Shown in pieces: positions 2,403-47,299 of a stretch of DNA of 64,000 nucleotides. The stretch lies in NCBI GenBank assembly GCA_910586385.1, contig CAJUGX010000004.1, positions 54,862 through 118,861 on the forward strand. Direction: 5' to 3'. Origin of the DNA: an uncultured Christensenella sp. (GTDB lineage: Bacteria; Bacillota; Clostridia; Christensenellales; UBA1242). The position numbers and the translations under genes are program-made. Numbering within the stretch: the first letter of the stretch is position 1; each line of letters begins with the position of its first letter. The notes under the pieces are model-generated. The model was not told the origin of the DNA. It saw only the letters and a list, made by a program, of their open reading frames with translations, and searched no databases.

Positions 2403-2410
2403 CCCCCCCC
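2403..2410. repeat. C8 homopolymer tract, 11 nt upstream of the -35 of the LRR lipoprotein promoter
   Basis: atCCCCCCCCtcccg. One of five runs of 8 or more C in this AT-rich window. Confidence 0.95.
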
Positions 2411-2482: not shown

Positions 2483-4120
2483 ATGAAATCAAAATTTAAG
2501 ATACTCTTATCATTTTTGTTTGTGGCTCTTTTTGTCACTGGAGTTGGAGTTTTGTCCGCATGCGGAGGAAAAAGCGAACCCGACATAACCGACGGGACTA
2601 AAGGCCTGTATTATTGGGAAAACGACGATGGTCAATCTTACAGAGTGGGAATGGGAGAAAAGGTCTCAACAAAAGACATTGTCATCCCAACAACTTACAA
2701 AGGCAAACCTGTCACAGAGATTGCTCCAGGAGCATTCGACGGCACTGACATTGTGAGCATCACTTTCACTGACAATGTGACAAAAATTGACTATTCTGCT
2801 TTCCAAAATTGCCAATCACTCACAAAAATAAATTGGGGAAAAAACATCTCCTCCATAGGAAGCAATGCTTTCGAAAATTGCAACGCTCTTCAAGAGGTTG
2901 AAGCCCCAGAAAGTGTTGTCGAATTTGGTTATTCGGTTTTCTCCGAATGCTCTTCTCTTACAAAAGTCATCATCCATGGCAATGCAACTTTGGATAACCA
3001 TGTTTTTTCTCAATGCAGTTCGCTGGAAACCGTCGAATTCCTTGGGGAAAACAGTTTGACTCTTGGTTCTAGTATATTCACACATAGTCCAAATCTCAAA
3101 CAAATGAGATTCACTGCTCAAAACGTGACTGCTGACGAATGGGCATTTATGGATTGCGAACCAACAACCCTCTCAGCAACAACAAACTTCCTCAACTCAG
3201 GTTTCATTGGGACAGACCAGTTGCAAATTTCAAAAAACAGCATCGAAAATCTTGAAATTTTTGATGGCGAAACACTTCCAGAAGGTTTTTCAACATTGTT
3301 CACCAAACTCAAAACATTGACATTGCCAAAGACTTTCAAAACCAGCACAAACAGAGCATTTGATTCTGCATATAGCCTCGAAAGAGTAAACTATCTTGGC
3401 ACACTTGCTGACTGGTGCAACATTGATTTTGATGGATATCGTTCGCATCCATTTTGCCGTTCTTCAAAAAACAAAGTGGAACTTTATATCGACGGAAATC
3501 TTGTTGAAGGAGATTTGACAATCACATCTGGCATCTCTGAAGTAAAACCATATGCATTTTATGGTTATGACAAGATCAACACCCTCACCTTGGCAGAAGG
3601 GGTCGAAACAGTTGGCTCTTATGCATTCAACAGTTGCGGACTTCTCAAAATAACTCTTCCAGAAAGTTTGACAAGCATCAATCAATATGCTTTCTACGGC
3701 AATCAAGGGCTTGTTTCAATAGTCAACCATTCTGCTCTTTCAGAACAAAGCATCCAAGACACAACTGACGGAAGCAACTATCTAGAAATCAAAACTGAAG
3801 ATGATGGTGGTTGCTTGCAAATGCTTAATGATTTGATGTTCTTCAAATTTGCTGATGGCTCGTATGCCCTTGCAAAATATCTTGGCACAGCGACTGAAAT
3901 CACCCTACCAGCAAGCATCGACAATGAAGATTATATAATTCTTGCAAATACCTTCTCTGGCGCTTCTCTTGAAAGCATCATCTTTGCTGAGCAGTCAAAT
4001 TGGTATGCTCAAGAAAACAACAATGAAGCAGTTGAAATGGATGTGACTGACCCAAACACAAATGCAACAAATCTGAAATCAACTCATGCAAACAAAAATT
4101 GGTACAGAATACTCCCATAA
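2483..4120 (+). CDS. surface lipoprotein with BspA-type leucine-rich repeats
   Basis: Signal peptide plus lipobox (GVLSAC). Repeated ...I.IP..V..IG..AF..C..L..I... units (e.g. VTEIAPGAFDGTDIVSITFTDNVTKIDYSAFQNCQSLTKINWGKNISSIGSNAFENCNALQEV) are typical of LRR_5/BspA repeats. Confidence 0.7.
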   Translation: MKSKFKILLSFLFVALFVTGVGVLSACGGKSEPDITDGTKGLYYWENDDGQSYRVGMGEKVSTKDIVIPTTYKGKPVTEIAPGAFDGTDIVSITFTDNVTKIDYSAFQNCQSLTKINWGKNISSIGSNAFENCNALQEVEAPESVVEFGYSVFSECSSLTKVIIHGNATLDNHVFSQCSSLETVEFLGENSLTLGSSIFTHSPNLKQMRFTAQNVTADEWAFMDCEPTTLSATTNFLNSGFIGTDQLQISKNSIENLEIFDGETLPEGFSTLFTKLKTLTLPKTFKTSTNRAFDSAYSLERVNYLGTLADWCNIDFDGYRSHPFCRSSKNKVELYIDGNLVEGDLTITSGISEVKPYAFYGYDKINTLTLAEGVETVGSYAFNSCGLLKITLPESLTSINQYAFYGNQGLVSIVNHSALSEQSIQDTTDGSNYLEIKTEDDGGCLQMLNDLMFFKFADGSYALAKYLGTATEITLPASIDNEDYIILANTFSGASLESIIFAEQSNWYAQENNNEAVEMDVTDPNTNATNLKSTHANKNWYRILP

Positions 4121-5534: not shown

Positions 5535-6539
5535 CTATTTTGAAATAGCTCCGCCTTCTTTCTTTGGAAGACCGCTTATTGGTTGCTTTTTGCTGGCAGT
5601 CTTTTTCATGGCATTTTTTTTCGCAATCTCTCTCAATTTCTTTCCGAGTTTAACACCCTTTTCAATAACCGCAGGTTTGATTCCAACCATAGCCTTGTGA
5701 TTGATAAGGGAACTTCCACTATGGTCAGTTATTGTTTGCCTTGAAAATTCATCCCTTACAAGGGCAACGTAATCATTAAATGTACAATGAACTTCCTCTC
5801 TTACCGTGGTGAGTTTCATGCACTGAAGAGTGTCAACTGCTGAAAGGTTTTCCCTGTCCCAATCCTTGGTGAGTATAAAATCGCCTCCTCCAAGTTTGCA
5901 AGCAGAAATCCCCGCCTTTGTTTTATCGTCATAAAGATAGATAAGTTGTGCAATCATACATGAACAAACCATTTCACTCTCTTTGTCAGTAAACTTTTCA
6001 AAATGATACTCTGGTTCTGGCACATAAATCCCAAATCCACCAGGCTCACTTGCCACACAACTTGCCTGCATGTGATAAGGAGTGATGTACGCCTCCTTAA
6101 AAAATGAATAAAAATAATCATTTTTCTCGTCGTTATAAGGGTGAATCACAGGATAATACGCGAGTGGTGCAACAACTACTGATTTTCTAATGCGAGCATA
6201 CTTTTTAAGAAGTTCGACCTCTTGTTTTACCTTTCCTCTTGGGACAGTAGGCTGAGAAACAAGCATCGTATACTTTTTCTCACCAAAACTCGCAACAAAA
6301 ACAAGTTCTGTGTCACCATAATTGATAAATTGAATATCTGCCTTCTCTCCAGTCCTCAAATATATCTCTTCAAACCATTCAGCAACTTGATTTTTTACAC
6401 TCTGCAAAACTTTGTACTCAATGTCTATTAGTTTTAGACCCTTTCTCAAAGGTTCATAATATACTGGACTGTTCACAATCTTGATAAAATCTTTTTCCGT
6501 TGTTGGAATGCCAAGTTTTTCTTTTCCGGTTTTTTCCAT
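5535..6539 (-). CDS. hypothetical protein with a Lys-rich C-terminal tail
   Basis: ORF 5535..6557. Start placed at ATG 6539 (AAAAGGGGTGG upstream). No confident family assignment. Confidence 0.5.
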   Translation of the reverse strand: MEKTGKEKLGIPTTEKDFIKIVNSPVYYEPLRKGLKLIDIEYKVLQSVKNQVAEWFEEIYLRTGEKADIQFINYGDTELVFVASFGEKKYTMLVSQPTVPRGKVKQEVELLKKYARIRKSVVVAPLAYYPVIHPYNDEKNDYFYSFFKEAYITPYHMQASCVASEPGGFGIYVPEPEYHFEKFTDKESEMVCSCMIAQLIYLYDDKTKAGISACKLGGGDFILTKDWDRENLSAVDTLQCMKLTTVREEVHCTFNDYVALVRDEFSRQTITDHSGSSLINHKAMVGIKPAVIEKGVKLGKKLREIAKKNAMKKTASKKQPISGLPKKEGGAISK

Positions 6540-6656
6540 AAAGCCACCCCTTTTCATAAATTATATTTAATAGTACTTTATATATACTCGTATAATAACC
6601 CAAAACACACCTTTTGTCAACCCCAAATTTTTGAAAAAACCTCAATATGCTTGACT

Positions 6657-6664
6657 CCCCCCCC
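6657..6664. repeat. C8 homopolymer tract directly abutting a TTGACT -35 element
   Basis: TTGACT(6651-6656)-CCCCCCCC-aatgtga-TATTCT(6672-6677). The tract makes up most of a 15-nt promoter spacer, 33 nt upstream of ATG 6697. Confidence 0.9.
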
Positions 6665-6696
6665 AATGTGATATTCTTTGAGCGGAGGAAAAGAAA

Positions 6697-7053
6697 ATGT
6701 ATAAACAACAAGACTTAAAAGAATGTGATATTGAATTATTAACTGAAATAACAGACACAAATCTAACCAATGAATATGTCAAACTTATTGAGAATGGGGA
6801 AAGAGAAAATCTTCCCGATAATATTGTATTCGAAACAATAGCATCCAAAAATAAACAAGTATGTTATAAATTTTATGAAGTAAGAAATGAGGAAGAAATA
6901 GAGCAAGACTTGAAAATGTCAAAAATCAAAAGTCTAAACTCAATATCTAAAAGCTTGGATGGTATACATAGAATAATGCATTTCTTTGAAATCTTGACTA
7001 TAGTGGGAATGCTTATTGGCATTTTAGCAATCTTTTTAGTATTCGCACGTTGA
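6697..7053 (+). CDS. hypothetical tail-anchored membrane protein
   Basis: 118 aa, GGAGGAA RBS, a single C-terminal TM (FFEILTIVGMLIGILAIFLVF), very AT-rich coding sequence. Confidence 0.45.
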   Translation: MYKQQDLKECDIELLTEITDTNLTNEYVKLIENGERENLPDNIVFETIASKNKQVCYKFYEVRNEEEIEQDLKMSKIKSLNSISKSLDGIHRIMHFFEILTIVGMLIGILAIFLVFAR

Positions 7054-7231: not shown

Positions 7232-8866
7232 CTATTCAAGCGAAATGAGGTAGTAGTAAACTGGTTGTCCACCATTTGCCACAGTCACTTCGCAATCTGG
7301 ATATTTTTCAGCAAGTTTTGATTGAAGTGCTTCAGCTTCATCTTCTCTGATATCTTCACCATAGAAGAGTGTGATATTCATCACTGTGTCGCTCATAAGT
7401 GCTTCAACAAGTTTCTCTGTTGTCTCGCTTACGAGGCTTCCTTTTGCCAAAATTGCCTTGTCATCAAGTCCGATGATTTCACCTTTTGCAAGGTCAAATC
7501 CATCAACGTGAGTATCTCTGACAGCGTATGTCACAGAGCCAGAACGCACGCTTCGGATTGCTTCAAGCATTGCATTTTGGTTTTCTTCAACACTTGCATC
7601 TGGGTTGAATGCGATTGATGCCGCAATCCCCTCTGGGACGCTCTTTGTTGGGATGACAATGAGGTTTTTGTTTGTCACATCATTGGCTTGTTCTGCTGCC
7701 AAAACGATGTTTTTGTTGTTTGGGAAGACAAAGATATTTCTTGCAGGCACTTTTTCAGCAGCAGTTGCAATATCTTCCGCACTTGGATTCATAGTTTGAC
7801 CGCCAACAATGATTTGGTCAACAGTGAGCTCTTTGAAGATTTCTCCAAGTCCGTCACCAGGAGCAACAGCAATCATTCCGATTTCTTTTGTCTCTTCAAC
7901 GGCTTGAGCCTTCTTTTTGAGTTCTCTGTTCTGCTCTCTCATGTTTTCGATCTTGAGATTGAAGAGTTCGCCAAGTTCCAAAGCATAGCCAAGTGCTTTG
8001 TTTGGCTCATTTGTGTGTACATGCACCTTGACAAGTGACAAATCACCGATGCAAATGACAGAATCACCGATTTCCATGAGTCTTTCACGGAGTTTGTCGA
8101 TGTCAGCCTCGGTTGTCTTCTTGTGCATATTGATAATCATGTACTCTGTGCAATAACCAAACTCGATTTCACCCAAATTGTTGATATCAGCAATGACATC
8201 ATCAACCGTTTGAGGCTTTGTTTCGTCTTCGAAAGAGTATTCAAGATCCTCTTCACCATTGATGTAACGAGAAAATCCTGTGAAAATCACCAAAATACCG
8301 CGACCACCAGAGTCAACAACGCCAGCTTTCTTCAAAACTGGAAGCATTTCAGGTGTTTGTTTGAGGATTTCTTCCCCTGTTTCACATACTTTTCTGAGGA
8401 AAGTCTCAAAATCATCGTGTTTCTTTGCAAGTGCAACGGCATTTTCAGCCATGACACGGATGACTGTCAAAATTGTCCCCTCTTTTGGCTTTGTAACAGC
8501 CTTGTATGCTATGGTTGCACCCTCTTGCATAGCCTTTGCAAAGTCTTTTGTTGTCACCTCTTTGCAGTTTTTGGTGACTGAGCAGAAGCCTTTGAAAATC
8601 TGTGAGGTGATTACCCCACTGTTTCCTCTCGCACCTCTGAGTGCACCTTTTGAAAATGCTTCTGACAAAGAAACAAGGTCATTGTTCATGCACTTGTTTA
8701 TTTCTCCAACAGCAGATCTCATAGTCAAAAACATATTTGTCCCAGTGTCTCCGTCTGGAACAGGAAAAACGTTCAATGAGTCAACATACTCTTTATTTTG
8801 TTCAAGAAGACTTACTCCAGCAAGGACCATCTTGCGGAAGGTTGTCCCGTTTATTGCTTTTTGCAT
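7232..8866 (-). CDS. yloV: DAK2 domain fusion protein YloV
   Basis: The N-terminus LNVFPVPDGDTGTNMFLTM is the DhaL/DAK2 motif. About 544 aa, and follows yloU as in Bacillus. Confidence 0.88.
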   Translation of the reverse strand: MQKAINGTTFRKMVLAGVSLLEQNKEYVDSLNVFPVPDGDTGTNMFLTMRSAVGEINKCMNNDLVSLSEAFSKGALRGARGNSGVITSQIFKGFCSVTKNCKEVTTKDFAKAMQEGATIAYKAVTKPKEGTILTVIRVMAENAVALAKKHDDFETFLRKVCETGEEILKQTPEMLPVLKKAGVVDSGGRGILVIFTGFSRYINGEEDLEYSFEDETKPQTVDDVIADINNLGEIEFGYCTEYMIINMHKKTTEADIDKLRERLMEIGDSVICIGDLSLVKVHVHTNEPNKALGYALELGELFNLKIENMREQNRELKKKAQAVEETKEIGMIAVAPGDGLGEIFKELTVDQIIVGGQTMNPSAEDIATAAEKVPARNIFVFPNNKNIVLAAEQANDVTNKNLIVIPTKSVPEGIAASIAFNPDASVEENQNAMLEAIRSVRSGSVTYAVRDTHVDGFDLAKGEIIGLDDKAILAKGSLVSETTEKLVEALMSDTVMNITLFYGEDIREDEAEALQSKLAEKYPDCEVTVANGGQPVYYYLISLE

Positions 8867-9875: not shown

Positions 9876-11030
9876 TTATTTTTCTTGTTTTTGCCCCTTT
9901 CTACTCAGACAGCCGTTTACAATCACATACACAAATGCGATAAGCATAAACACTGAAAGAAAGACAATTTCCACAATATAAAATGGTTGTGCGTAAATTT
10001 TCTGACAGAAAATTATTGAAGCTGAAATTGCATATGCCACAGTTGTCGCTCCAATGCTTGACATGAAGACAATTGACAATTTCTCTCGATAATTTCTGAG
10101 CATGCCAAGGGATATTGTTGTAAGCATAAACATCATCATAAGTCTTGACACATCAAAAGCTTTCAAAGATTTGTCAAAATAAGAAATCTTGAAATACAAG
10201 AAGAGCGCAATGGCAACAGTCACAATTCTATACACAAGTGGAAGTTTGTTTGAGCCATGGATGCAATTGCAAGTCACAACAGCAACAATTGAACAAGCAA
10301 TTATTCCAAACACAAAAACCATGTTATACAAATTGATTGATGACCTATTGATTATGGTAGCAATGATTGTCGCCAAAATCATAAGCCAAGAAACAATATA
10401 GAAAGCGCAAATCGAAACATTTTTGAAAATCTGTTGATAGAAATTTACAAAAAGCATCGCACATGCAACGACTGTCATTGTATCATAAATATAAAACATT
10501 GAAATATTGATATTTTCAAGCTTGCAAAGCATGCAAACATAACAAGTAAGCGCAATGATTCCAATCAAAATGAAGTCTATATATTTTGCTTTTATTTTTT
10601 CAAAATTTGAAATGCAATAATAACATATAAACAAAATCATAGCCGAAACGATAATCAAGCCGGTGTTATTGTTGTGCAAAAAGTAAATCGCAAAGTCTGT
10701 AAAATATTTTATAAATGCCCAAAGAGCAACCCCACATGCAAGAATAAGAAACAAAAACGATAAGATTTGTTTTATCTGCGAATTTCTTTCAAAAACATCG
10801 CCATTTTTTTTGCTTCTCACAAAAGCATAAACAAACTTGTAAATTTCAAGAACTGCCCCCAAAAACAGAAGCAATGCGCTCACAAGCATGAAAGCTCTAC
10901 ATGAGTAAGTTGGTCTGAAAGAGGTGTTTTTGAAAAAGGTAATCAGAATGTTGTTGACAAAGAGACAAACTGTGGCAACAAAAGGCAAATAATTATACTT
11001 CTTTATCAAATTGTACAGTTTTTCAGCCAT
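9876..11030 (-). CDS. polytopic integral membrane protein (10 or more TM), function unknown
   Basis: 384 aa, almost entirely hydrophobic helices. Starts 1 nt after the stop of the upstream lipoprotein gene, so probably co-transcribed. Confidence 0.6.
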   Translation of the reverse strand: MAEKLYNLIKKYNYLPFVATVCLFVNNILITFFKNTSFRPTYSCRAFMLVSALLLFLGAVLEIYKFVYAFVRSKKNGDVFERNSQIKQILSFLFLILACGVALWAFIKYFTDFAIYFLHNNNTGLIIVSAMILFICYYCISNFEKIKAKYIDFILIGIIALTCYVCMLCKLENINISMFYIYDTMTVVACAMLFVNFYQQIFKNVSICAFYIVSWLMILATIIATIINRSSINLYNMVFVFGIIACSIVAVVTCNCIHGSNKLPLVYRIVTVAIALFLYFKISYFDKSLKAFDVSRLMMMFMLTTISLGMLRNYREKLSIVFMSSIGATTVAYAISASIIFCQKIYAQPFYIVEIVFLSVFMLIAFVYVIVNGCLSRKGQKQEK

Positions 11031-11031
11031 T

Positions 11032-12447
11032 TTAAGCCTCTGCTGTGATTGTGTGAGTTTTTACCAAGACTTCGCCATCTTGTCCAGGATAATAAACTTT
11101 AAGCTCGTCAGCAATTGCTCCGCTGTCAATAATTGTTGGAAGTGGAGCAGAAAGTGAAGAAAGTTCACCTGTGCCATTTATAAAGAACAATGTCATATCT
11201 TTTGGAGCATTCATATAGAGTGTTGAGTTGTAACCCCCAATCTTAATGTCATCCCCATAAGCCCAAATCAAAACTTCCATAGGAACTTGCCCTGGCAAAA
11301 CCTTAATATTGTGGTCATTGCAATATCTCACTCTGCGCTCATATGCACCTTCATATCCATCTGCCCATGCTGTACCTTTTTCATCGACACTAGTTGAAGG
11401 GTCATCAAGTCCCCATTTTGGATGTGGCTTAATCACAATGTTGTAATCTGGAAAATCTGCCATGATTTTGTTGAAGAATTTCTCAAAATCTTGTTCTTTA
11501 GTTCCGTTCTTGATATCTGCATCTACGCCTGAAAATTGCTCACTGGTCAAACTTGCTCCGCAAACAACAAGAGTTTTCTTTTGATTATCTTGTTTGATGA
11601 TTGGATCAATATAATCAACATCAAAAACCGCTTTCTTAAATTTTGTTTGATTCTCTGCTGAAAGAGCCCTATACATTTGTGTAAGACTTGACTTTTTGAA
11701 ATTAATATTGGCAAGCTTAAGTTTCATACTTTCACTTGAAGTTTCAAGAAGTTCTGGATATTGCATCATAACCTTGACATTATCTCTATATTCATAAGCA
11801 AAAGCATAAGAAAGTTTGTACCCTGAAGTGTATGTGGCTGCAGTAAAATCATAGTTTGGATTCGTCTTTGCCTGTTGAATCTCATTCCTTACATTTTGCA
11901 AATCATCTTCAAAAACCTCATTTCCATCTGTTCCGCCATAAATGCTCTTGAAATATGTGTAAGCAGCATTTCCATCTTCCACAAGATTGATTTTCCAATT
12001 TTCTTTTGGAATTTGATTTGTGATAAACATCTTGAATGCGAGTTTAACATTATAATCTGTGACATAAAGTGTAAATTTTGCTTTCTTATTTTTCAAATAA
12101 GTGTGAAGCACTTTGTTTGACATCTCTTCCAAAACAGTTGATGAAACACCAGAGGCATTAGGCTCATCCTTTCCCAAGAAATTGAAACCAAGTTGAGTTT
12201 CATCTGTGAATGTAAGTTTTCTGCTGTACCACATATCAGTGCTGTCCTTTGTGCCAAGAAGGTCAAGCGTAGACATAACGACTGGCACTGTCGCATTGGT
12301 GAGAACAAAGTTGTAATTTTTCTCTTCCCCCTTACCTTTTCCACAGCCAATCAAAGCAAATGGAAGTGTGAAAAGAACTGCTGTTGCAAGCGCACAAGAT
12401 TTGAAAAACAACTTGATTGCACTTGACTTTTTGTTTTGTGATTTCAT
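11032..12447 (-). CDS. lipoprotein with GT80 sialyltransferase-like motifs (putative sialyl- or trans-sialidase-type transferase)
   Basis: Lipobox LIGC. INLVEDGNAAY (cf. the PmST1 NLYDDGSMEY D/E-D/E-G motif), KTLVVCGAS, IKPHPKWG (HP motif), and PMEVLIWAYG..IGGYNSTLY, where Glu-to-Ser spacing is 17 residues as in PmST1 E338/S355. ATG 12447 follows GGAG (the ORF-track start at 12450 is TTG). Confidence 0.5.
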   Translation of the reverse strand: MKSQNKKSSAIKLFFKSCALATAVLFTLPFALIGCGKGKGEEKNYNFVLTNATVPVVMSTLDLLGTKDSTDMWYSRKLTFTDETQLGFNFLGKDEPNASGVSSTVLEEMSNKVLHTYLKNKKAKFTLYVTDYNVKLAFKMFITNQIPKENWKINLVEDGNAAYTYFKSIYGGTDGNEVFEDDLQNVRNEIQQAKTNPNYDFTAATYTSGYKLSYAFAYEYRDNVKVMMQYPELLETSSESMKLKLANINFKKSSLTQMYRALSAENQTKFKKAVFDVDYIDPIIKQDNQKKTLVVCGASLTSEQFSGVDADIKNGTKEQDFEKFFNKIMADFPDYNIVIKPHPKWGLDDPSTSVDEKGTAWADGYEGAYERRVRYCNDHNIKVLPGQVPMEVLIWAYGDDIKIGGYNSTLYMNAPKDMTLFFINGTGELSSLSAPLPTIIDSGAIADELKVYYPGQDGEVLVKTHTITAEA

Positions 12448-12489
12448 CAATTTTCTCCTTTTCTTTTTGTTAGTACAAGTTTAACACTT

Positions 12490-12498
12490 CCCCCCCCC
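12490..12498. repeat. C9 (G9 on the coding strand) homopolymer tract inside the promoter spacer of the 12447..9876 operon
   Basis: Minus strand reads TTGACA(12507-12502)-aac-GGGGGGGGG-aagtgt-TAAACT(12483-12478), an 18-nt spacer. Confidence 0.9.
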
Positions 12499-12601
12499 GT
12501 TTGTCAAATCATTTCCCCACTTTATTACATTCTTTACGCTTAAAAATCAAAATAGAAAAAGGATGCACAGACAGCATCCTTTTATATCTAGAAATGAGAT
12601 A

Positions 12602-17062: not shown

Positions 17063-17641
17063 CTATACCACATCTGGCCAGAGGTCTGTTGCAGAGAGTT
17101 CCAAAGAGCCAACCTTTTCGGCTGTGAGCATAAGTCTGTTGTATTTTATAACATCCTTGAAGAGTTTGCTCTTCTCATTTTTGCTACCTATTCCCTTGAG
17201 CAAATAGTCCTCGATTTTGTTTTCAACTTTGCCACAAAGTGAAGTGATTATGTATGCAAGTTGCAAGTGGTTGATATTTTTGCCAACGAGGTTTGCAAAC
17301 GCCTCATCCCTTGCAGAAATGTTTGCATTAAGCAAAGATACAAGTTCCTTCTCACTCTGCGTAGAAAGTGCAAGATGTTGAACTTTCAAGTGGCAATTTG
17401 AAAGGACTCTTTTCTTTGCCATTTCAAAGTCTCCCCCCTTTTCAACATCAGCCAAAACAGAAGCAAGTTCCACCTTGAAAAAGTCCGAAACAGGAAGTCC
17501 TTCTTCTTGCAAAATTGTTTGATTGTACTTGCTCAAAAGATACAAATAGTTTGAACGAGAAACGCCAAGCTCACATACGCCAGCACAAACATTGCCATTT
17601 GCATCAAATCCAACCATGTCAAACAAGTGTAAAAAGTTCAT
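17063..17641 (-). CDS. hypothetical protein
   Basis: ORF 17063..17800. The most plausible start is ATG 17641 (GGAAGAGGGAA upstream). No motif recognised. Confidence 0.45.
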   Translation of the reverse strand: MNFLHLFDMVGFDANGNVCAGVCELGVSRSNYLYLLSKYNQTILQEEGLPVSDFFKVELASVLADVEKGGDFEMAKKRVLSNCHLKVQHLALSTQSEKELVSLLNANISARDEAFANLVGKNINHLQLAYIITSLCGKVENKIEDYLLKGIGSKNEKSKLFKDVIKYNRLMLTAEKVGSLELSATDLWPDVV

Positions 17642-17849: not shown

Positions 17850-18602
17850 TTATGCAGCGAGTTGCTCTTCTCCACCAGTTTCGCCACCTTCTTCAACGAT
17901 TTCGAAGTTTGTGTCCAAATCTGTTGGATATTCATCAGCAATGTCACCAGTGAAAAGTTCAAATTCCATAACCATCACTTGACCAGCTGCGCTCATATTG
18001 AAAGCAAATTTTGTGATTTGGTTGTCTTTATATTCAAGCACAAATGACAATTTCCCTGACGCATCTTTGTATGTCATGCTGTAATTCACAACACCATCTT
18101 TGCCTGATTTAGAAATCTTCAAGCCTTGACCTTCCATTTGTTTTACAATGTTGAGATATTGGTTGATGTATGTTGACAAATCTGCCATTTGAAGAAGTTC
18201 TGCATATCCTTCCATAGCATCGCTTGCTGGATCATCAAGATCAACAGTTGATTTGAGATATTTCCCTTCGCCACCTTCTCTTGCAAACATTTCATTTCCA
18301 CGGAGATATGCTTCTCCTTGTATTGTTTCATTTGTTTGTGGGTCAGGCATTTCAATTTTCAAAGCAAATCCAAGTTCGCCATCTTCTTTGAATGCAACTG
18401 TTCCTGATGCTTTCATTCCTGTCATATCGACTTTCAATTTATAGCCAGCATCCATTGTGTTGATAGTTGACTCACTTGCGACATATTCTTGAACGTCAGC
18501 AACACTGATCTTGTTTCCGCATCCACTAAGTCCCACAGCTCCAGCAGTAAGTGTCGCAACTGCAAGAGCAGCAACACCAAAGATTTTTCCAAATTTTTTC
18601 AT
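17850..18602 (-). CDS. hypothetical lipoprotein with an acidic C-terminus
   Basis: Signal peptide plus lipobox (GLSGC), AAGGAGAAGG RBS, and a hairpin terminator at about 17808-17835. Confidence 0.65.
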   Translation of the reverse strand: MKKFGKIFGVAALAVATLTAGAVGLSGCGNKISVADVQEYVASESTINTMDAGYKLKVDMTGMKASGTVAFKEDGELGFALKIEMPDPQTNETIQGEAYLRGNEMFAREGGEGKYLKSTVDLDDPASDAMEGYAELLQMADLSTYINQYLNIVKQMEGQGLKISKSGKDGVVNYSMTYKDASGKLSFVLEYKDNQITKFAFNMSAAGQVMVMEFELFTGDIADEYPTDLDTNFEIVEEGGETGGEEQLAA

Positions 18603-18643: not shown

Positions 18644-18652
18644 CCCCCCCCC
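18644..18652. repeat. C9 (G9 on the coding strand) homopolymer tract inside the promoter spacer of the 18602 lipoprotein gene
   Basis: Minus strand reads TTGACG(18657-18652)-GGGGGGGG-attttgTGa-TACGCT(18634-18629), a 17-nt spacer with an extended -10 TG. Confidence 0.9.
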
Positions 18653-18730: not shown

Positions 18731-20773
18731 TTATTTTTTAGGAGTATATTTCAGTGCTCTCATACTGTTGAGCACAGCCAGCACAGTGACTCCAACGTCC
18801 GCAATAACCGCTTCCAACATTCCAGTCACACCAACAGCCCCCAAAATCAAAAAGATGAGTTTGATGCCTGCTGAAAGAATGATGTTCTGCCAAACAACTC
18901 CCCTTGTAAACTTTGAGAGTTTGATTGCAAGAGGGACTTTGTTTGGATTGTCATCAACAAGCACGATGTCAGATGCTTCAACACTTGCACTGCTTCCACT
19001 TATGCCCATGCTGATGCCTACATCTGCAAGCATAAGCGAAGGTGCATCGTTGATCCCATCTCCCACATAACCAACAAAATTTTTCTTATCTTTTTTTGTT
19101 TCTTCAATCCAGTGAAATTTGTCTTCAGGCAAGAGAGCGCTGTTGTATTCATCCAAACCAATCTTTTCAGCCACACTCTTGACCGCCTCAGCGCCATCAC
19201 CAGAAAGCATAACAGTCTTTACTGACATCTGTGAAAGAGCATTGCAAGCGACTTCCGCAGTTGGTTTGATTGTGTCAACAAGCACAATCTCTCCAAGTTT
19301 CTTTTTCCCCTCAAAAAGTTCAACCAGAGTCTTAGATGAACTTCTGTCTTTTCGCCCAACAAAATAATGTTTGTCTTTGAAATCGAAATAAACTCCTTCT
19401 CCAGCCTTCTCAGTCACATTCTTTGCCTTGGGCAATTTCTTGTCATTTGCCAAAACAATCGCCTTTGCAAGCGGATGGAGAGAATATTGTTCTCCCACTG
19501 CAGCCAAGAAAAGCACATCTTTTTCTTTCAAATCTTTGTCAAGAACTTCCACACTTTCGATTGAAAATTGTCCAGTTGTGAGAGTGCCCGTTTTGTCAAA
19601 TGCAACAATGTTCATCTTTGCACATGCATCAAGATAATTTGAGCCTTTGATCAAAATCCCTTTTCTTGAGGCATTTCCAATCCCAGAGAAATAAGTCAAT
19701 GGGACAGATATTGCAAACGCACATGGACAAGACACAACCAAGAAGATAAGCCCACGATAAATCGCATTGTCAAGGTTTCCAGTTGCCGCCCAAACAATTC
19801 CCCAAACAGCCAACGCAATGACGATTACACCAAGCGTATACCACTTTGTCATTTTTGAGATGAAGGTTTCTGTCTTTGACTTCTTCTCTGACGCGTCTTC
19901 AATCAAACTCATGATTCTGCTTGCAGTGCTGTTTTCATATGAAGCGACAGTCTCAATCTTCAAAACACCATCCAAAACAATTGCACCAGAAAGCACATTG
20001 TCACCAACTCTGACTGTCACTGGCACACTTTCGCCAGTCAGACTCTGAGTATCAAGTGAACAACTTCCCTCAATGACCTTGCCATCAATAGGGATTTTTT
20101 CTCCAACCTTCACAAGCAAAACACTTCCAACTTCAACATCCTTTGGGGACACAACTTCAATCACATCACCTTTGACAAGATTGGCATATTCTGGGGTCAA
20201 ATTTGTAAGTTCTGCAATTGATTTTCTCGATTTGTTGACAGCAAGACTCTCCAAGATTTTCCCAATGGTGTAAAGTGCCACAACCATAAGCCCTTCCATG
20301 TGCTCACCCACAAGCGTAGCACCAACAACGGAAATTGTGACAAGAAGATTTTCGTTGACAACACCCTTGAAGAGAAGCATCAAAGCCTTGAGATAGGTCT
20401 TAGACCCCATCAAAAGAGCTGACACAACAAACATTGTCCAAAACGCCCAGTCTGGCAATTTCTTTTCAAAAACAAGCGTCAAAATTCCAATTGCAAGCCC
20501 AACGGCAAACAAACACAAATCAAGGATAAAAAACGGATTTTTGTTCGATTTTTTAACCTCTCCGCAGACAATTTTTGCTTCTGGCTCAACTTTTTTTGCA
20601 CATTTAATGATGTTTTTGAGAGCCTTGTCAACATCTTCTGCCTCAAACGAGAGCTCACTTTTTACAAAATTTATCTGTGCACTTTCAACATCAGAAAGCT
20701 TGCAGATTTCTCCTTCGAGCACCTTTGCACAATTTGCGCAATCAAGCCCTTCAATCTTAACAACCTTTTTCAT
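18731..20773 (-). CDS. cadA: heavy-metal (Cd/Zn/Co-type) translocating P1B-ATPase
   Basis: N-terminal HMA domain (GLDCANCAKVLE), CPC in TM6 (VSCPCAFAISVP), DKTGTLT, GDGINDAP. Start at ATG 20773 (MKKVVKIEGLDC). Confidence 0.9.
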   Translation of the reverse strand: MKKVVKIEGLDCANCAKVLEGEICKLSDVESAQINFVKSELSFEAEDVDKALKNIIKCAKKVEPEAKIVCGEVKKSNKNPFFILDLCLFAVGLAIGILTLVFEKKLPDWAFWTMFVVSALLMGSKTYLKALMLLFKGVVNENLLVTISVVGATLVGEHMEGLMVVALYTIGKILESLAVNKSRKSIAELTNLTPEYANLVKGDVIEVVSPKDVEVGSVLLVKVGEKIPIDGKVIEGSCSLDTQSLTGESVPVTVRVGDNVLSGAIVLDGVLKIETVASYENSTASRIMSLIEDASEKKSKTETFISKMTKWYTLGVIVIALAVWGIVWAATGNLDNAIYRGLIFLVVSCPCAFAISVPLTYFSGIGNASRKGILIKGSNYLDACAKMNIVAFDKTGTLTTGQFSIESVEVLDKDLKEKDVLFLAAVGEQYSLHPLAKAIVLANDKKLPKAKNVTEKAGEGVYFDFKDKHYFVGRKDRSSSKTLVELFEGKKKLGEIVLVDTIKPTAEVACNALSQMSVKTVMLSGDGAEAVKSVAEKIGLDEYNSALLPEDKFHWIEETKKDKKNFVGYVGDGINDAPSLMLADVGISMGISGSSASVEASDIVLVDDNPNKVPLAIKLSKFTRGVVWQNIILSAGIKLIFLILGAVGVTGMLEAVIADVGVTVLAVLNSMRALKYTPKK

Positions 20774-46619: not shown

Positions 46620-47252
46620 TTATTTAAGGTCTTCAATGATTTTCTTTATCGCTTTGTTGTAACTCTCCTCATCAAGAATTCCAAGTTCTTTGAAGTGTTT
46701 CAGTTCTGCAATTTTTCCATCAATACTTTGATTGCTTGCTTTCACATTTACCTCTTGTGTTTGTGCAACAACAGGTGTAACAGGTGCTGCAACCTGAACA
46801 TTTACTTGCGCTGTCTGCCTTGGAGTAGTCGCACTTGGTTGAGTTTGTCCAACTGGTGCGACATCATTGAAATCTTTCAAACACAAAACTGCAATTTCAA
46901 GTCCAAATGTGATAAGTTGTCCTGCCAAGAATGAGAAAACAACCAATGCAATTCTTTGTCCGTCTCTCTTTTTGAGTGTCCCATCTGGATTCATAGGGTC
47001 TTTGACGAGATTGGCATTCAAAGCCAAATTTGTGATGCTGAATGCAAGCAAAAGAATTCCCATCACAAGCACTGGTGTTGCCCAAGCATATGAATAATAA
47101 GCATAATCATAGTAGTATTCTGAATAGCCTCCAATGTAAACACATCCCAAAATAAACATTGCAAGTGCGCCAATCATTTGGATTGATGAAAGCACAATTC
47201 CAAGGATGGTTGCACCTTTTTCAAGTCCTCTTTTTGTTTTGTTGTAAACCAT
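46620..47252 (-). CDS. membrane protein with a C-terminal SHOCT domain
   Basis: Four TM helices, a Pro/Thr/Val/Gln linker, then KIAELKHFKELGILDEESYNKAIKKII (SHOCT-like). Start at ATG 47252 (AAAGGAGAA upstream). Confidence 0.62.
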   Translation of the reverse strand: MVYNKTKRGLEKGATILGIVLSSIQMIGALAMFILGCVYIGGYSEYYYDYAYYSYAWATPVLVMGILLLAFSITNLALNANLVKDPMNPDGTLKKRDGQRIALVVFSFLAGQLITFGLEIAVLCLKDFNDVAPVGQTQPSATTPRQTAQVNVQVAAPVTPVVAQTQEVNVKASNQSIDGKIAELKHFKELGILDEESYNKAIKKIIEDLK

Positions 47253-47290: not shown

Positions 47291-47299
47291 CCCCCCCCC
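47291..47299. repeat. C9 (G9 on the coding strand) homopolymer tract in the spacer upstream of a consensus TATAAT
   Basis: Minus strand reads TTGATTtttttgc-GGGGGGGGG-aaaaaag-TATAAT(47283-47278), 39 nt upstream of ATG 47252. Confidence 0.9.

Follow-up and report, generated by a model that had tools for sequence, protein, structure and literature searches.

Variable Poly-G Tracts in Predicted Promoters of Surface-Protein Genes in an Uncultured Clostridial Gut Bacterium

Introduction

Long runs of a single base are known as switches of gene expression in some bacteria, and an AT-rich genome which carries several runs of eight or nine G in front of its genes raises an obvious question: Do these runs regulate the genes beside them, or are they there by accident? 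We have considered this question for a stretch of 64,000 nucleotides (nt) from an uncultured Christensenella sp. (assembly GCA_910586385.1, contig CAJUGX010000004.1), which we call the window, and above all for a G9 tract in the predicted promoter of an operon on its minus strand. The first gene of this operon codes for a lipoprotein which resembles the sialyltransferases of glycosyltransferase family 80 (GT80). The window contains five such tracts, numbered as sites 1 to 5 by position (Table 1), the tract of the GT80-like operon being site 3. The reading we favour, with a probability of about 0.7, is that the tracts at sites 2, 3, and 4 are hypermutable repeats in sigma-A-type promoters of surface-protein genes, whose transcription they submit to phase or "volume" variation.

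Results

G/C Runs in the Window

The plus strand of the window contains six runs of at least six C, five of them with a length of 8–9 nt. Runs of at least six G are absent from this strand, and so are runs of seven C. For G/C runs of at least eight, the number expected in the window is 0.32 if bases are independent and identically distributed, 0.20 in a first-order model, and 0.25 in a second-order model; five are observed, with a Poisson probability of five or more between 2e-6 and 2e-5. These expectations are analytic, and the tracts were masked when the parameters were estimated. Runs of exactly six or seven are, if anything, depleted: one is observed, about 4–6 are expected.

All five long runs are intergenic, in a window with only 7.8% of intergenic DNA. 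The distances from tract to start codon are 73, 33, 43, 42, and 39 nt at sites 1 to 5, and the five downstream genes all code for lipoproteins or membrane proteins: a lipobox is found at sites 1, 3, and 4, together with a BspA leucine-rich repeat (LRR) domain at site 1, and a membrane helix at sites 2 and 5. No tract of the window is found upstream of a housekeeping gene.

This is what the initial annotation of the window, made from its sequence, had described: five runs of 8–9 C on the plus strand, rare for the base composition, all intergenic, 33–73 nt from the start of a lipoprotein or membrane-protein gene, with no run of at least eight inside a gene or before a housekeeping gene. We have found this description of the tracts accurate in every detail checked, coordinates included. 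Its reading of the minus strand at site 3 as TTGACA, an 18-nt spacer, and TAAACT is also exact.

Promoter of the GT80-Like Operon

The 18-nt spacer of site 3 is AACGGGGGGGGGAAGTGT on the minus strand, that is AAC-G9-AAGTGT, and TG precedes the TAAACT hexamer. As the initial annotation had proposed, the tract lies inside the promoter: a consensus -35 and a TG-extended -10 flank it, and three other species keep the pair in their orthologous operon. On the 3' side come a GGAG ribosome-binding site and the start codon, the ATG at 12447. Upstream, the terminator-like hairpin of the TrxB-like gene insulates the operon, whose transcription therefore depends on the tract-bearing promoter. A terminator-like hairpin is also found immediately upstream of site 4, so that at both sites the tract promoters are the only obvious source of transcription.

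The second gene of the operon codes for a polytopic membrane protein, and the pair formed by the lipoprotein and a polytopic membrane protein of about 380 amino acids is kept in every species examined. We have considered the possibility that the two proteins are paralogues and rejected it.

The tracts at sites 2 and 3 are fully within the spacers of strong -35/-10 pairs, which under strict criteria make up 8.9% of intergenic bases. Site 4 counts as a spacer tract if one accepts TACGCT as a weak -10, on the strength of its homology with the TACCAT of a related locus (L010). With these predicted hexamers, a homopolymer of about 7 nt or more lies between -35 and -10 at sites 2, 3, and 4, and this is not the case at sites 1 and 5.

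Variation in Tract Length

We have compared the tracts in assembly consensus sequences from about 5–6 independent assemblies of the window species (Table 2). Tract lengths aside, the window is identical to CATLHI010000003.1, from the metagenome-assembled genome (MAG) GCA_949949015.1, and to Logan contigs from ERR3473661, ERR3473662, and ERR2844016. About 30 kb of the window and GCA_949949015.1 differ by no substitution and by two insertions or deletions (indels), both of them in tracts: G9/G7 at site 4 and C8/C9 at site 2. Over 9,584 bp, ERR2844016 shows no substitution, and its only indel is the tract of site 2. ERZ13657781 (L001) is more distant, with 43 mismatches in 7.4 kb; its single indel in this stretch is the tract of site 3, where G8 leaves a spacer of 17 nt.

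In the same compared bases (27 kb), 26 A/T runs of 7–8 nt and the intragenic G6 run are all invariant. This invariance, as well as the 2-nt difference between G9 and G7, speaks against simple errors in the sequencing of homopolymers. Tract length varies among clonal or near-clonal genomes far more often than the sequence around it. Heterogeneity of this kind among assemblies had been set beforehand as a check of the initial proposal, and it is found: lengths differ at sites 2, 3, and 4 between identical or near-identical genomes.

Table 1. Position of the tracts, promoters, and genes considered in the window (nt, nucleotides; aa, amino acids; ORF, open reading frame).
Feature	Position	Strand	Description
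Site 3, G9 tract	12490-12498	-	In promoter spacer of GT80-like operon
Site 3, predicted sigma-A promoter	12478-12507	-	TTGACA (12507-12502), 18-nt spacer, TG-extended -10 TAAACT (12483-12478)
Terminator-like hairpin of TrxB-like gene	12557-12583	-	10-bp stem followed by T run
Lipoprotein, 471 aa, first gene of operon	11032-12447	-	Lipobox LIGC, GT80 sialyltransferase-like fold
Polytopic membrane protein, 384 aa, second gene of operon	9876-11030	-	No Pfam family
Site 4, G9 tract	18644-18652	-	Promoter TTGACG (18657-18652), 17 nt, TGa-TACGCT (18634-18629)
Lipoprotein, 250 aa, behind site 4	17850-18602	-	Lipobox LSGC, no Pfam family
Site 2, C8 tract	6657-6664	+	Promoter TTGACT (6651-6656), 15 nt C8-AATGTGA, TGa-TATTCT (6672-6677)
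Protein, 118 aa, behind site 2	6697-7053	+	C-terminal membrane helix
Site 1, C8 tract	2403-2410	+	11 nt upstream of TTGCAA (2422-2427), 17 nt, TGc-TATAAC (2445-2450)
BspA-type LRR lipoprotein gene behind site 1	2483-4120	+	BspA LRR domain
Site 5, G9 tract	47291-47299	-	Between TTGACA-18-CAAAAT (47345-47316) and TATAAT (47283-47278)
Membrane protein gene, 210 aa, behind site 5	46620-47252	-	Membrane helices
C6 run	17433-17438	+ (C)	Inside ORF; intragenic G6 control

Table 2. Tract lengths (nt) in assemblies of the window species.
Site	Window	GCA_949949015.1	ERR3473661	ERR3473662	ERR2844016	ERZ13657781 (L001/L092)
1	8	8	uncovered	8	8	uncovered
2	8	9	8	8	9	9
3	9	9	9	9	9	8
4	9	7	9	uncovered	uncovered	9
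5	9	9	uncovered	9	9	uncovered

Orthologous Promoters in Related Species

Relatives were collected by scanning genome contigs with the product of the neighbouring TrxB-like gene as query, which gave 40 loci; the loci compared below carry the prefix L. The same scan with the GT80-like protein as query found no relative, and in metagenome contigs the best match to the TrxB-like query has 38% identity, of no use for comparing tracts. In the genome collection, the closest species are represented by MAGs from the gut: an "uncultured Christensenella sp." with 73% identity in the TrxB-like protein, Candidatus Caccovivens, which NCBI taxonomy places in class Clostridia, and several genomes named "Clostridia bacterium" from mouse, rabbit, deer, and chicken. 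The window itself contains the dcw/mur cluster, FtsA/FtsZ, SpoIIGA, two sporulation-type sigma factors, and YpeB, so the host is a walled spore-former.

The promoter of the GT80-like operon shows G9 in three species, an interrupted tract in one, and no tract in two more distant ones. In the species labelled P0003 it reads TTGACA-aagt-G9-attttg-TATACT, with a spacer of 19 nt, and in P0002 TTGACG-ac-G9-aattgtgg-TATCAT, also 19 nt. The P0004 promoter is TTGACA-aaaaaagtc-GGGGTGGGG-TAAAAT, with a spacer of 18 nt and the interrupted tract. The tract is absent from the GT80-like promoters of P0010 and P0011, whose proteins have 42–43% identity. TTGACA or TTGACG and a TAnnnT -10 flank the tract position in the orthologous promoters of L081, L087, and L098, and the design of the promoter is retained while the genomic neighbourhood of the operon differs between species. 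A second case of variation is found in P0003: 4.8 kb of L084 and L081 contain no mismatch, and their only indel is G8/G9 in the orthologous promoter of the GT80-like operon.

In loci L087 and L088, whose GT80-like genes start at 1877 and 1195, GGGGTGGGG takes the place of G9 about 35–55 nt before the gene. To judge from its sequence, the interrupted tract is presumably stabilised and would lock the length of the promoter, as in the decay of contingency loci.

Other tracts are conserved in a similar way. The orthologues of the site 4 lipoprotein have G9 in a 17-nt spacer (L010), G6 in 18 nt (L009), and G9 in 19 nt (L011). Promoters of the site 2 type are found in L010 (C7, 14 nt, the orthologue of site 2), L013 (C7, 15 nt), and L015 (C7, 14 nt). 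The layout TTGAC(A/T/G), 0–10 nt, tract, (T)GTGn-TAnnnT is recurrent: it is present in L010 (two sites), L011, L013, L015, L081, L098, and L092. The tract keeps its place in the promoter between species whose proteins share 45–57% identity, and seven of the eight intergenic tracts of the relatives are inside a spacer.

The GT80-Like Lipoprotein

The 471 amino acid lipoprotein has no Pfam family at E<=1e-3, and a phmmer search against PDB gives nothing at E<=1. The second protein of the operon has no match in Pfam, nor with phmmer in PDB. Homologues of the lipoprotein form just 11 clusters among 5.8 billion proteins, all of them lipoproteins.

An AlphaFold2 model built on the alignment of these homologues has a predicted local distance difference test score (pLDDT) of 82.8 and a predicted template modelling score (pTM) of 0.81. 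In a Foldseek search of PDB with this model, ranks 1–23 are all GT80 sialyltransferases, with E from 8e-14 to 5e-9 and target-normalised template modelling scores of 0.51–0.66; they include the Photobacterium structures 2zwi, 4r83, and 2z4t and the Pasteurella enzyme PmST1 (2ex0, 2iiq). The first match outside GT80 is a polysialyltransferase (E 5e-6). The predicted structure is a GT-B fold of two Rossmann domains, nearest to PmST1 and the Photobacterium enzymes.

Three motifs are invariant across the 11 homologues: E157-D158-G159, H342-P343, and G404-G405-Y-x-S408. A weak profile alignment to PmST1 (E = 0.27) pairs EDG with DDG (YDDGS), HP with HP (GHP), and GGYSST with GGVASS. We take D/E-D/E-G to be the catalytic base and S-S/T to be the contact with the phosphate of cytidine monophosphate.

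Sequence scores do not place the protein in GT80 (CAZy; Pfam PF11477, PM0188): Pfam gives no match, the best profile value against PDB is the E = 0.27 just mentioned, and identity to GT80 enzymes is 13–17%. Fold and motifs thus support the term "GT80-like" used in the initial annotation for the operon, which does not amount to demonstrated membership of GT80. The modelled protein shares the GT-B fold and the D/E-D/E-G, H-P, and S-S/T motifs with PmST1/PM0188 and with the alpha2,3- and alpha2,6-sialyltransferases of Photobacterium. It differs from the GT80 enzymes in that it is clostridial, a predicted extracytoplasmic lipoprotein, and always paired with a polytopic membrane protein. Some Photobacterium sialyltransferases are membrane- or lipid-anchored too. 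A predicted lipid-anchored, extracytoplasmic GT80-like enzyme of Clostridia appears to be unannotated so far.

Sites 1, 2, and 5 and Other Tracts

The promoter of site 2 diverges from a separate strong promoter, which belongs to the minus-strand gene at 5535-6557. In ERZ13657781 (L092 19666-20173) the site 2 promoter is kept, with C9, but it is followed by a different ORF of 155 amino acids with a faint zinc-ribbon match, and homology to the window ends just past the -10. To judge from the sequences, one gene cassette seems to have been exchanged for another behind a variable promoter that was itself conserved.

At site 1, a consensus scan finds no promoter which encloses the tract. The minus strand downstream of the tract (2297-2327, 2330-2400) holds only a 15-codon ORF, MKKERRQIAKKRNML, which runs into a bidirectional terminator. 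The minus-strand flank, G8-ATTTTGAAC-TATCAA, resembles the promoter of site 4 without its -35, and may be a decayed copy. At site 5, the TATAAT hexamer has no usable -35, and the role of the tract as part of a promoter is ambiguous.

Some tracts of the relatives are of a different kind. In-frame G8–G9 tracts inside genes are found in L009 (8951-8958), L010 (5635-5643), L025 (11041-11049), and L012 (15794-15802); the genes concerned code for a serine hydrolase, where the tract codes for RGG, a lipoprotein, with the tract at about codon 40, and a large protein. By their sequence, these tracts are candidate translational (frameshift) switches. In L081, from the P0003 species, a G9 is found between rpsO and pnp (7524-7532), and another one (19889-19897) is within the final codons of a gene for an ABC ATPase, with the ATG of the next gene a few bases away. 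Both have the flank GTTGT-G9-A in common.

The strands of the window are markedly asymmetric: the plus strand has 14,262 C and 10,387 G (G+C 38.5%), GC skew is negative across the entire window (-0.05 to -0.20), and the minus strand carries 53 of the 69 ORFs. Counting sites 1–5, L009–L025, and L081, 17 of the 18 tracts of at least 7 nt have their G on the G-rich, presumed leading strand, regardless of the direction of the regulated gene. Composition by itself favours C over G runs on the plus strand about 11-fold, which suffices to explain this bias, and we have dropped the search for a special cause. A G-quadruplex or other structural role has also been dropped: a lone run cannot make an intramolecular quadruplex. 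Rfam finds a single tRNA in the window and no riboswitch or leader at any tract, and TRF detects no further repeat class of note.

Discussion

Proposed Slippage in the Promoter Spacer

If sites 2 to 4 act as we propose, replication slippage would add or drop single G:C pairs in the tract. Each change would alter how far apart the -35 (TTGAC-) and the TG-extended -10 lie and how they are phased on the helix, and RNA polymerase would initiate with more or less efficiency. Transcription would likely be graded with the spacer, strong at 17–18 nt and weak at 14–15 nt or at 19 nt and above. Switching would be frequent and reversible within the population, and a clonal population would mix cells with different combinations of lipoproteins and membrane proteins, the GT80-like lipoprotein and its membrane partner among them. 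To judge from the sequences compared here, the bacterium probably switches surface-protein genes up and down at random.

Several points weigh against this reading. Modal spacers are not of 17 nt: those of the GT80-like promoters are 18, 19, 19, and 18 nt, and those of the site 2 type 14–16 nt. The suggestion of the initial annotation that the tract is one G away from the optimal 17 nt holds at site 3, where G8 gives 17 nt, and is not general, the commonest spacers being 18–19 or 14–16 nt. The TG/TRTG extended -10 motifs can lessen the dependence on the -35 and on spacing. G9 is modal whatever spacer flanks it, which looks more like a mutational equilibrium than like selection on spacing. Part of the length variation could come from the handling of mixed or error-prone homopolymer reads by assemblers. 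Relatives also have tracts inside genes, in the rpsO-pnp interval, and at the 3' end of the ABC ATPase gene, so some tracts are not promoter switches. No recognisable spacer encloses site 1 or site 5, and neither tract changes in length across four assemblies each. Five contingency promoters had been proposed for the window; sites 2, 3, and 4 have their tract in a recognisable spacer, and only these three fit a spacer switch.

The alternative which survives best, although we consider it unlikely, is that the tracts are mutable yet neutral: they would arise by slippage and persist where frameshifts do no harm, that is between genes, their changes of length would hardly matter for expression, and their link to surface-protein promoters would be incidental. 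It would account for the modal G9 found irrespective of spacer, within a range of 15–19 nt, and it agrees with the buffering of spacing effects which extended -10 motifs may provide, with tracts outside promoters (sites 1 and 5; L081 7524, between rpsO and pnp), and with the strand of 17 of the 18 tracts, which is the one that composition alone predicts. Nevertheless, random placement in intergenic DNA would put about 9% of the tracts in a strong spacer, and we find two or three of the five in the window and seven of eight in the relatives. Neutral tracts would also not be expected to keep the same promoter position across species with 45–57% protein identity, or to avoid housekeeping genes in the window, and a change of 1–2 bp in the spacer does alter the strength of sigma-70-type promoters (PMC7864442).

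It is still less probable that the differences in length are technical, produced by sequencing, polymerase chain reaction, or assembly error, the tract being really a fixed and conserved promoter element. The comparison does rest on consensus contigs assembled from short reads, homopolymers are prone to error, and several contigs may come from related samples of the same projects (ERR34736xx). Against this, the 26 A/T runs of 7–8 nt and the G6 run are invariant over the same 27 kb, and one of the differences spans 2 nt. In addition, alleles are reproducible within sources: the lengths of GCA_949949015.1 are the same in four independent retrievals, and ERR3473661 and ERR3473662 agree with the window. 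A second species, from other projects, behaves alike. The tracts themselves are real, since their positions are conserved across MAGs of unrelated studies.

Finally, a G run which is recognised by a protein (a regulator or an alternative sigma factor), its variation in length being tolerated noise, is very improbable: the run followed by ATTTTG does recur at site 4, at site 1, and in L081 (9946/7524), and the poly-G tpr promoters of Treponema pallidum are co-regulated by a CRP homologue (PMC7864442), but the tract lies anywhere between 0 and 10 nt from the -35, its orientation to the gene differs (G at sites 3–5, C at sites 1–2), its flanks are otherwise unrelated, and the hexamers are ordinary sigma-A consensus.

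Comparison with Known Systems

Repeat-based promoter switches are textbook knowledge for mucosal pathogens and mycoplasmas, and the phase variation described for gut commensals is mainly that of invertible promoters (Bacteroides, C. difficile). Slippage in promoter spacers, our preferred reading for sites 2 to 4, has its closest counterparts in poly-G systems. A poly-G between -35 and -10 controls tp0126 in T. pallidum and porA in Neisseria meningitidis, with an optimum spacer of 17 nt (PMC7864442). In both cases a G homopolymer of about 7–11 nt lies in the sigma-70-type spacer of a surface-protein gene and varies in length within and between isolates; here G7–G9 tracts lie in predicted 15–19 nt spacers before lipoprotein genes and vary in otherwise clonal DNA. 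The poly-G promoters of T. pallidum tprE/G/J/L are also among the closest known systems. The hosts of porA and tp0126 are diderm pathogens, unlike the present one, a Gram-positive-type, spore-forming clostridial gut commensal known from MAGs only. The promoters described here also differ by the TG/TRTG extended -10 of Firmicutes.

In Mycoplasma hyorhinis, the vlp promoters contain a poly-A in the spacer, and the Vmm promoter of M. mycoides contains TA repeats in the same place. As in our case, these are Bacillota, broadly defined, the regulated genes code for lipoproteins, and the repeat is in the promoter spacer. On the other hand, the repeat is A or TA and the hosts are wall-less Mollicutes, whereas here it is G in Clostridia; vlp is a multigene family, and the genes described here are unrelated single loci.

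The poly-G contingency loci of Campylobacter jejuni include cstII, which codes for a phase-variable sialyltransferase. The similarities are an AT-rich genome, many tracts of G8–G11 with G9 as the modal length, and targets among genes for surface glycans and surface proteins, which include a sialyltransferase or, here, a candidate sialyltransferase-like gene. Most C. jejuni tracts are intragenic translational switches, whereas those of the window are all intergenic, and CstII belongs to GT42, while the lipoprotein is GT80-like. The phasome of this species is mentioned in PMC13317227.

Our literature search found no account of promoter phase variation driven by repeats in Clostridia or Christensenellales; in a 2025 review, Clostridia appear for invertible elements (inversion switches) only. 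The initial annotation was not aware of a description of the mechanism for sporulating Firmicutes. Our search agrees with this as far as Clostridia are concerned, with the proviso that the vlp promoters of Mycoplasma already belong to the same phylum. The mechanism is classical: what is new is its probable extension to uncultured spore-forming gut Clostridia.

Biological Significance

A wider proposal is that the clade, which is related to Christensenella and Caccovivens, varies its surface mainly by means of poly-G tracts, with promoter switches, in-frame intragenic switches, and the GT80-like gene as a target. We put it forward as tentative, and the odds are somewhat against it. In that case, about five tracts in 64 kb would mean, by extrapolation, dozens of loci in a genome or more than 100, and the GT80-like lipoprotein, if its modelled fold reflects its function, could give the cell a decoration of host-like sialic acid which is switched on and off. 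This apparent density of tracts, together with a GT80-like sialyltransferase lipoprotein as target, adds somewhat to the interest of the case.

For the organism, the window yields a few candidates for variable surface antigens. It may also tie a previously unannotated family of GT80-like lipoproteins, with 11 clusters among 5.8 billion proteins, to stochastic expression. Curators of MAGs should take care not to "polish away" the length of tracts at loci of this kind. Should the wider proposal for the clade hold, contingency loci built on repeats would count as a general strategy among commensal Firmicutes, beside the invertible promoters of Bacteroides and C. difficile.

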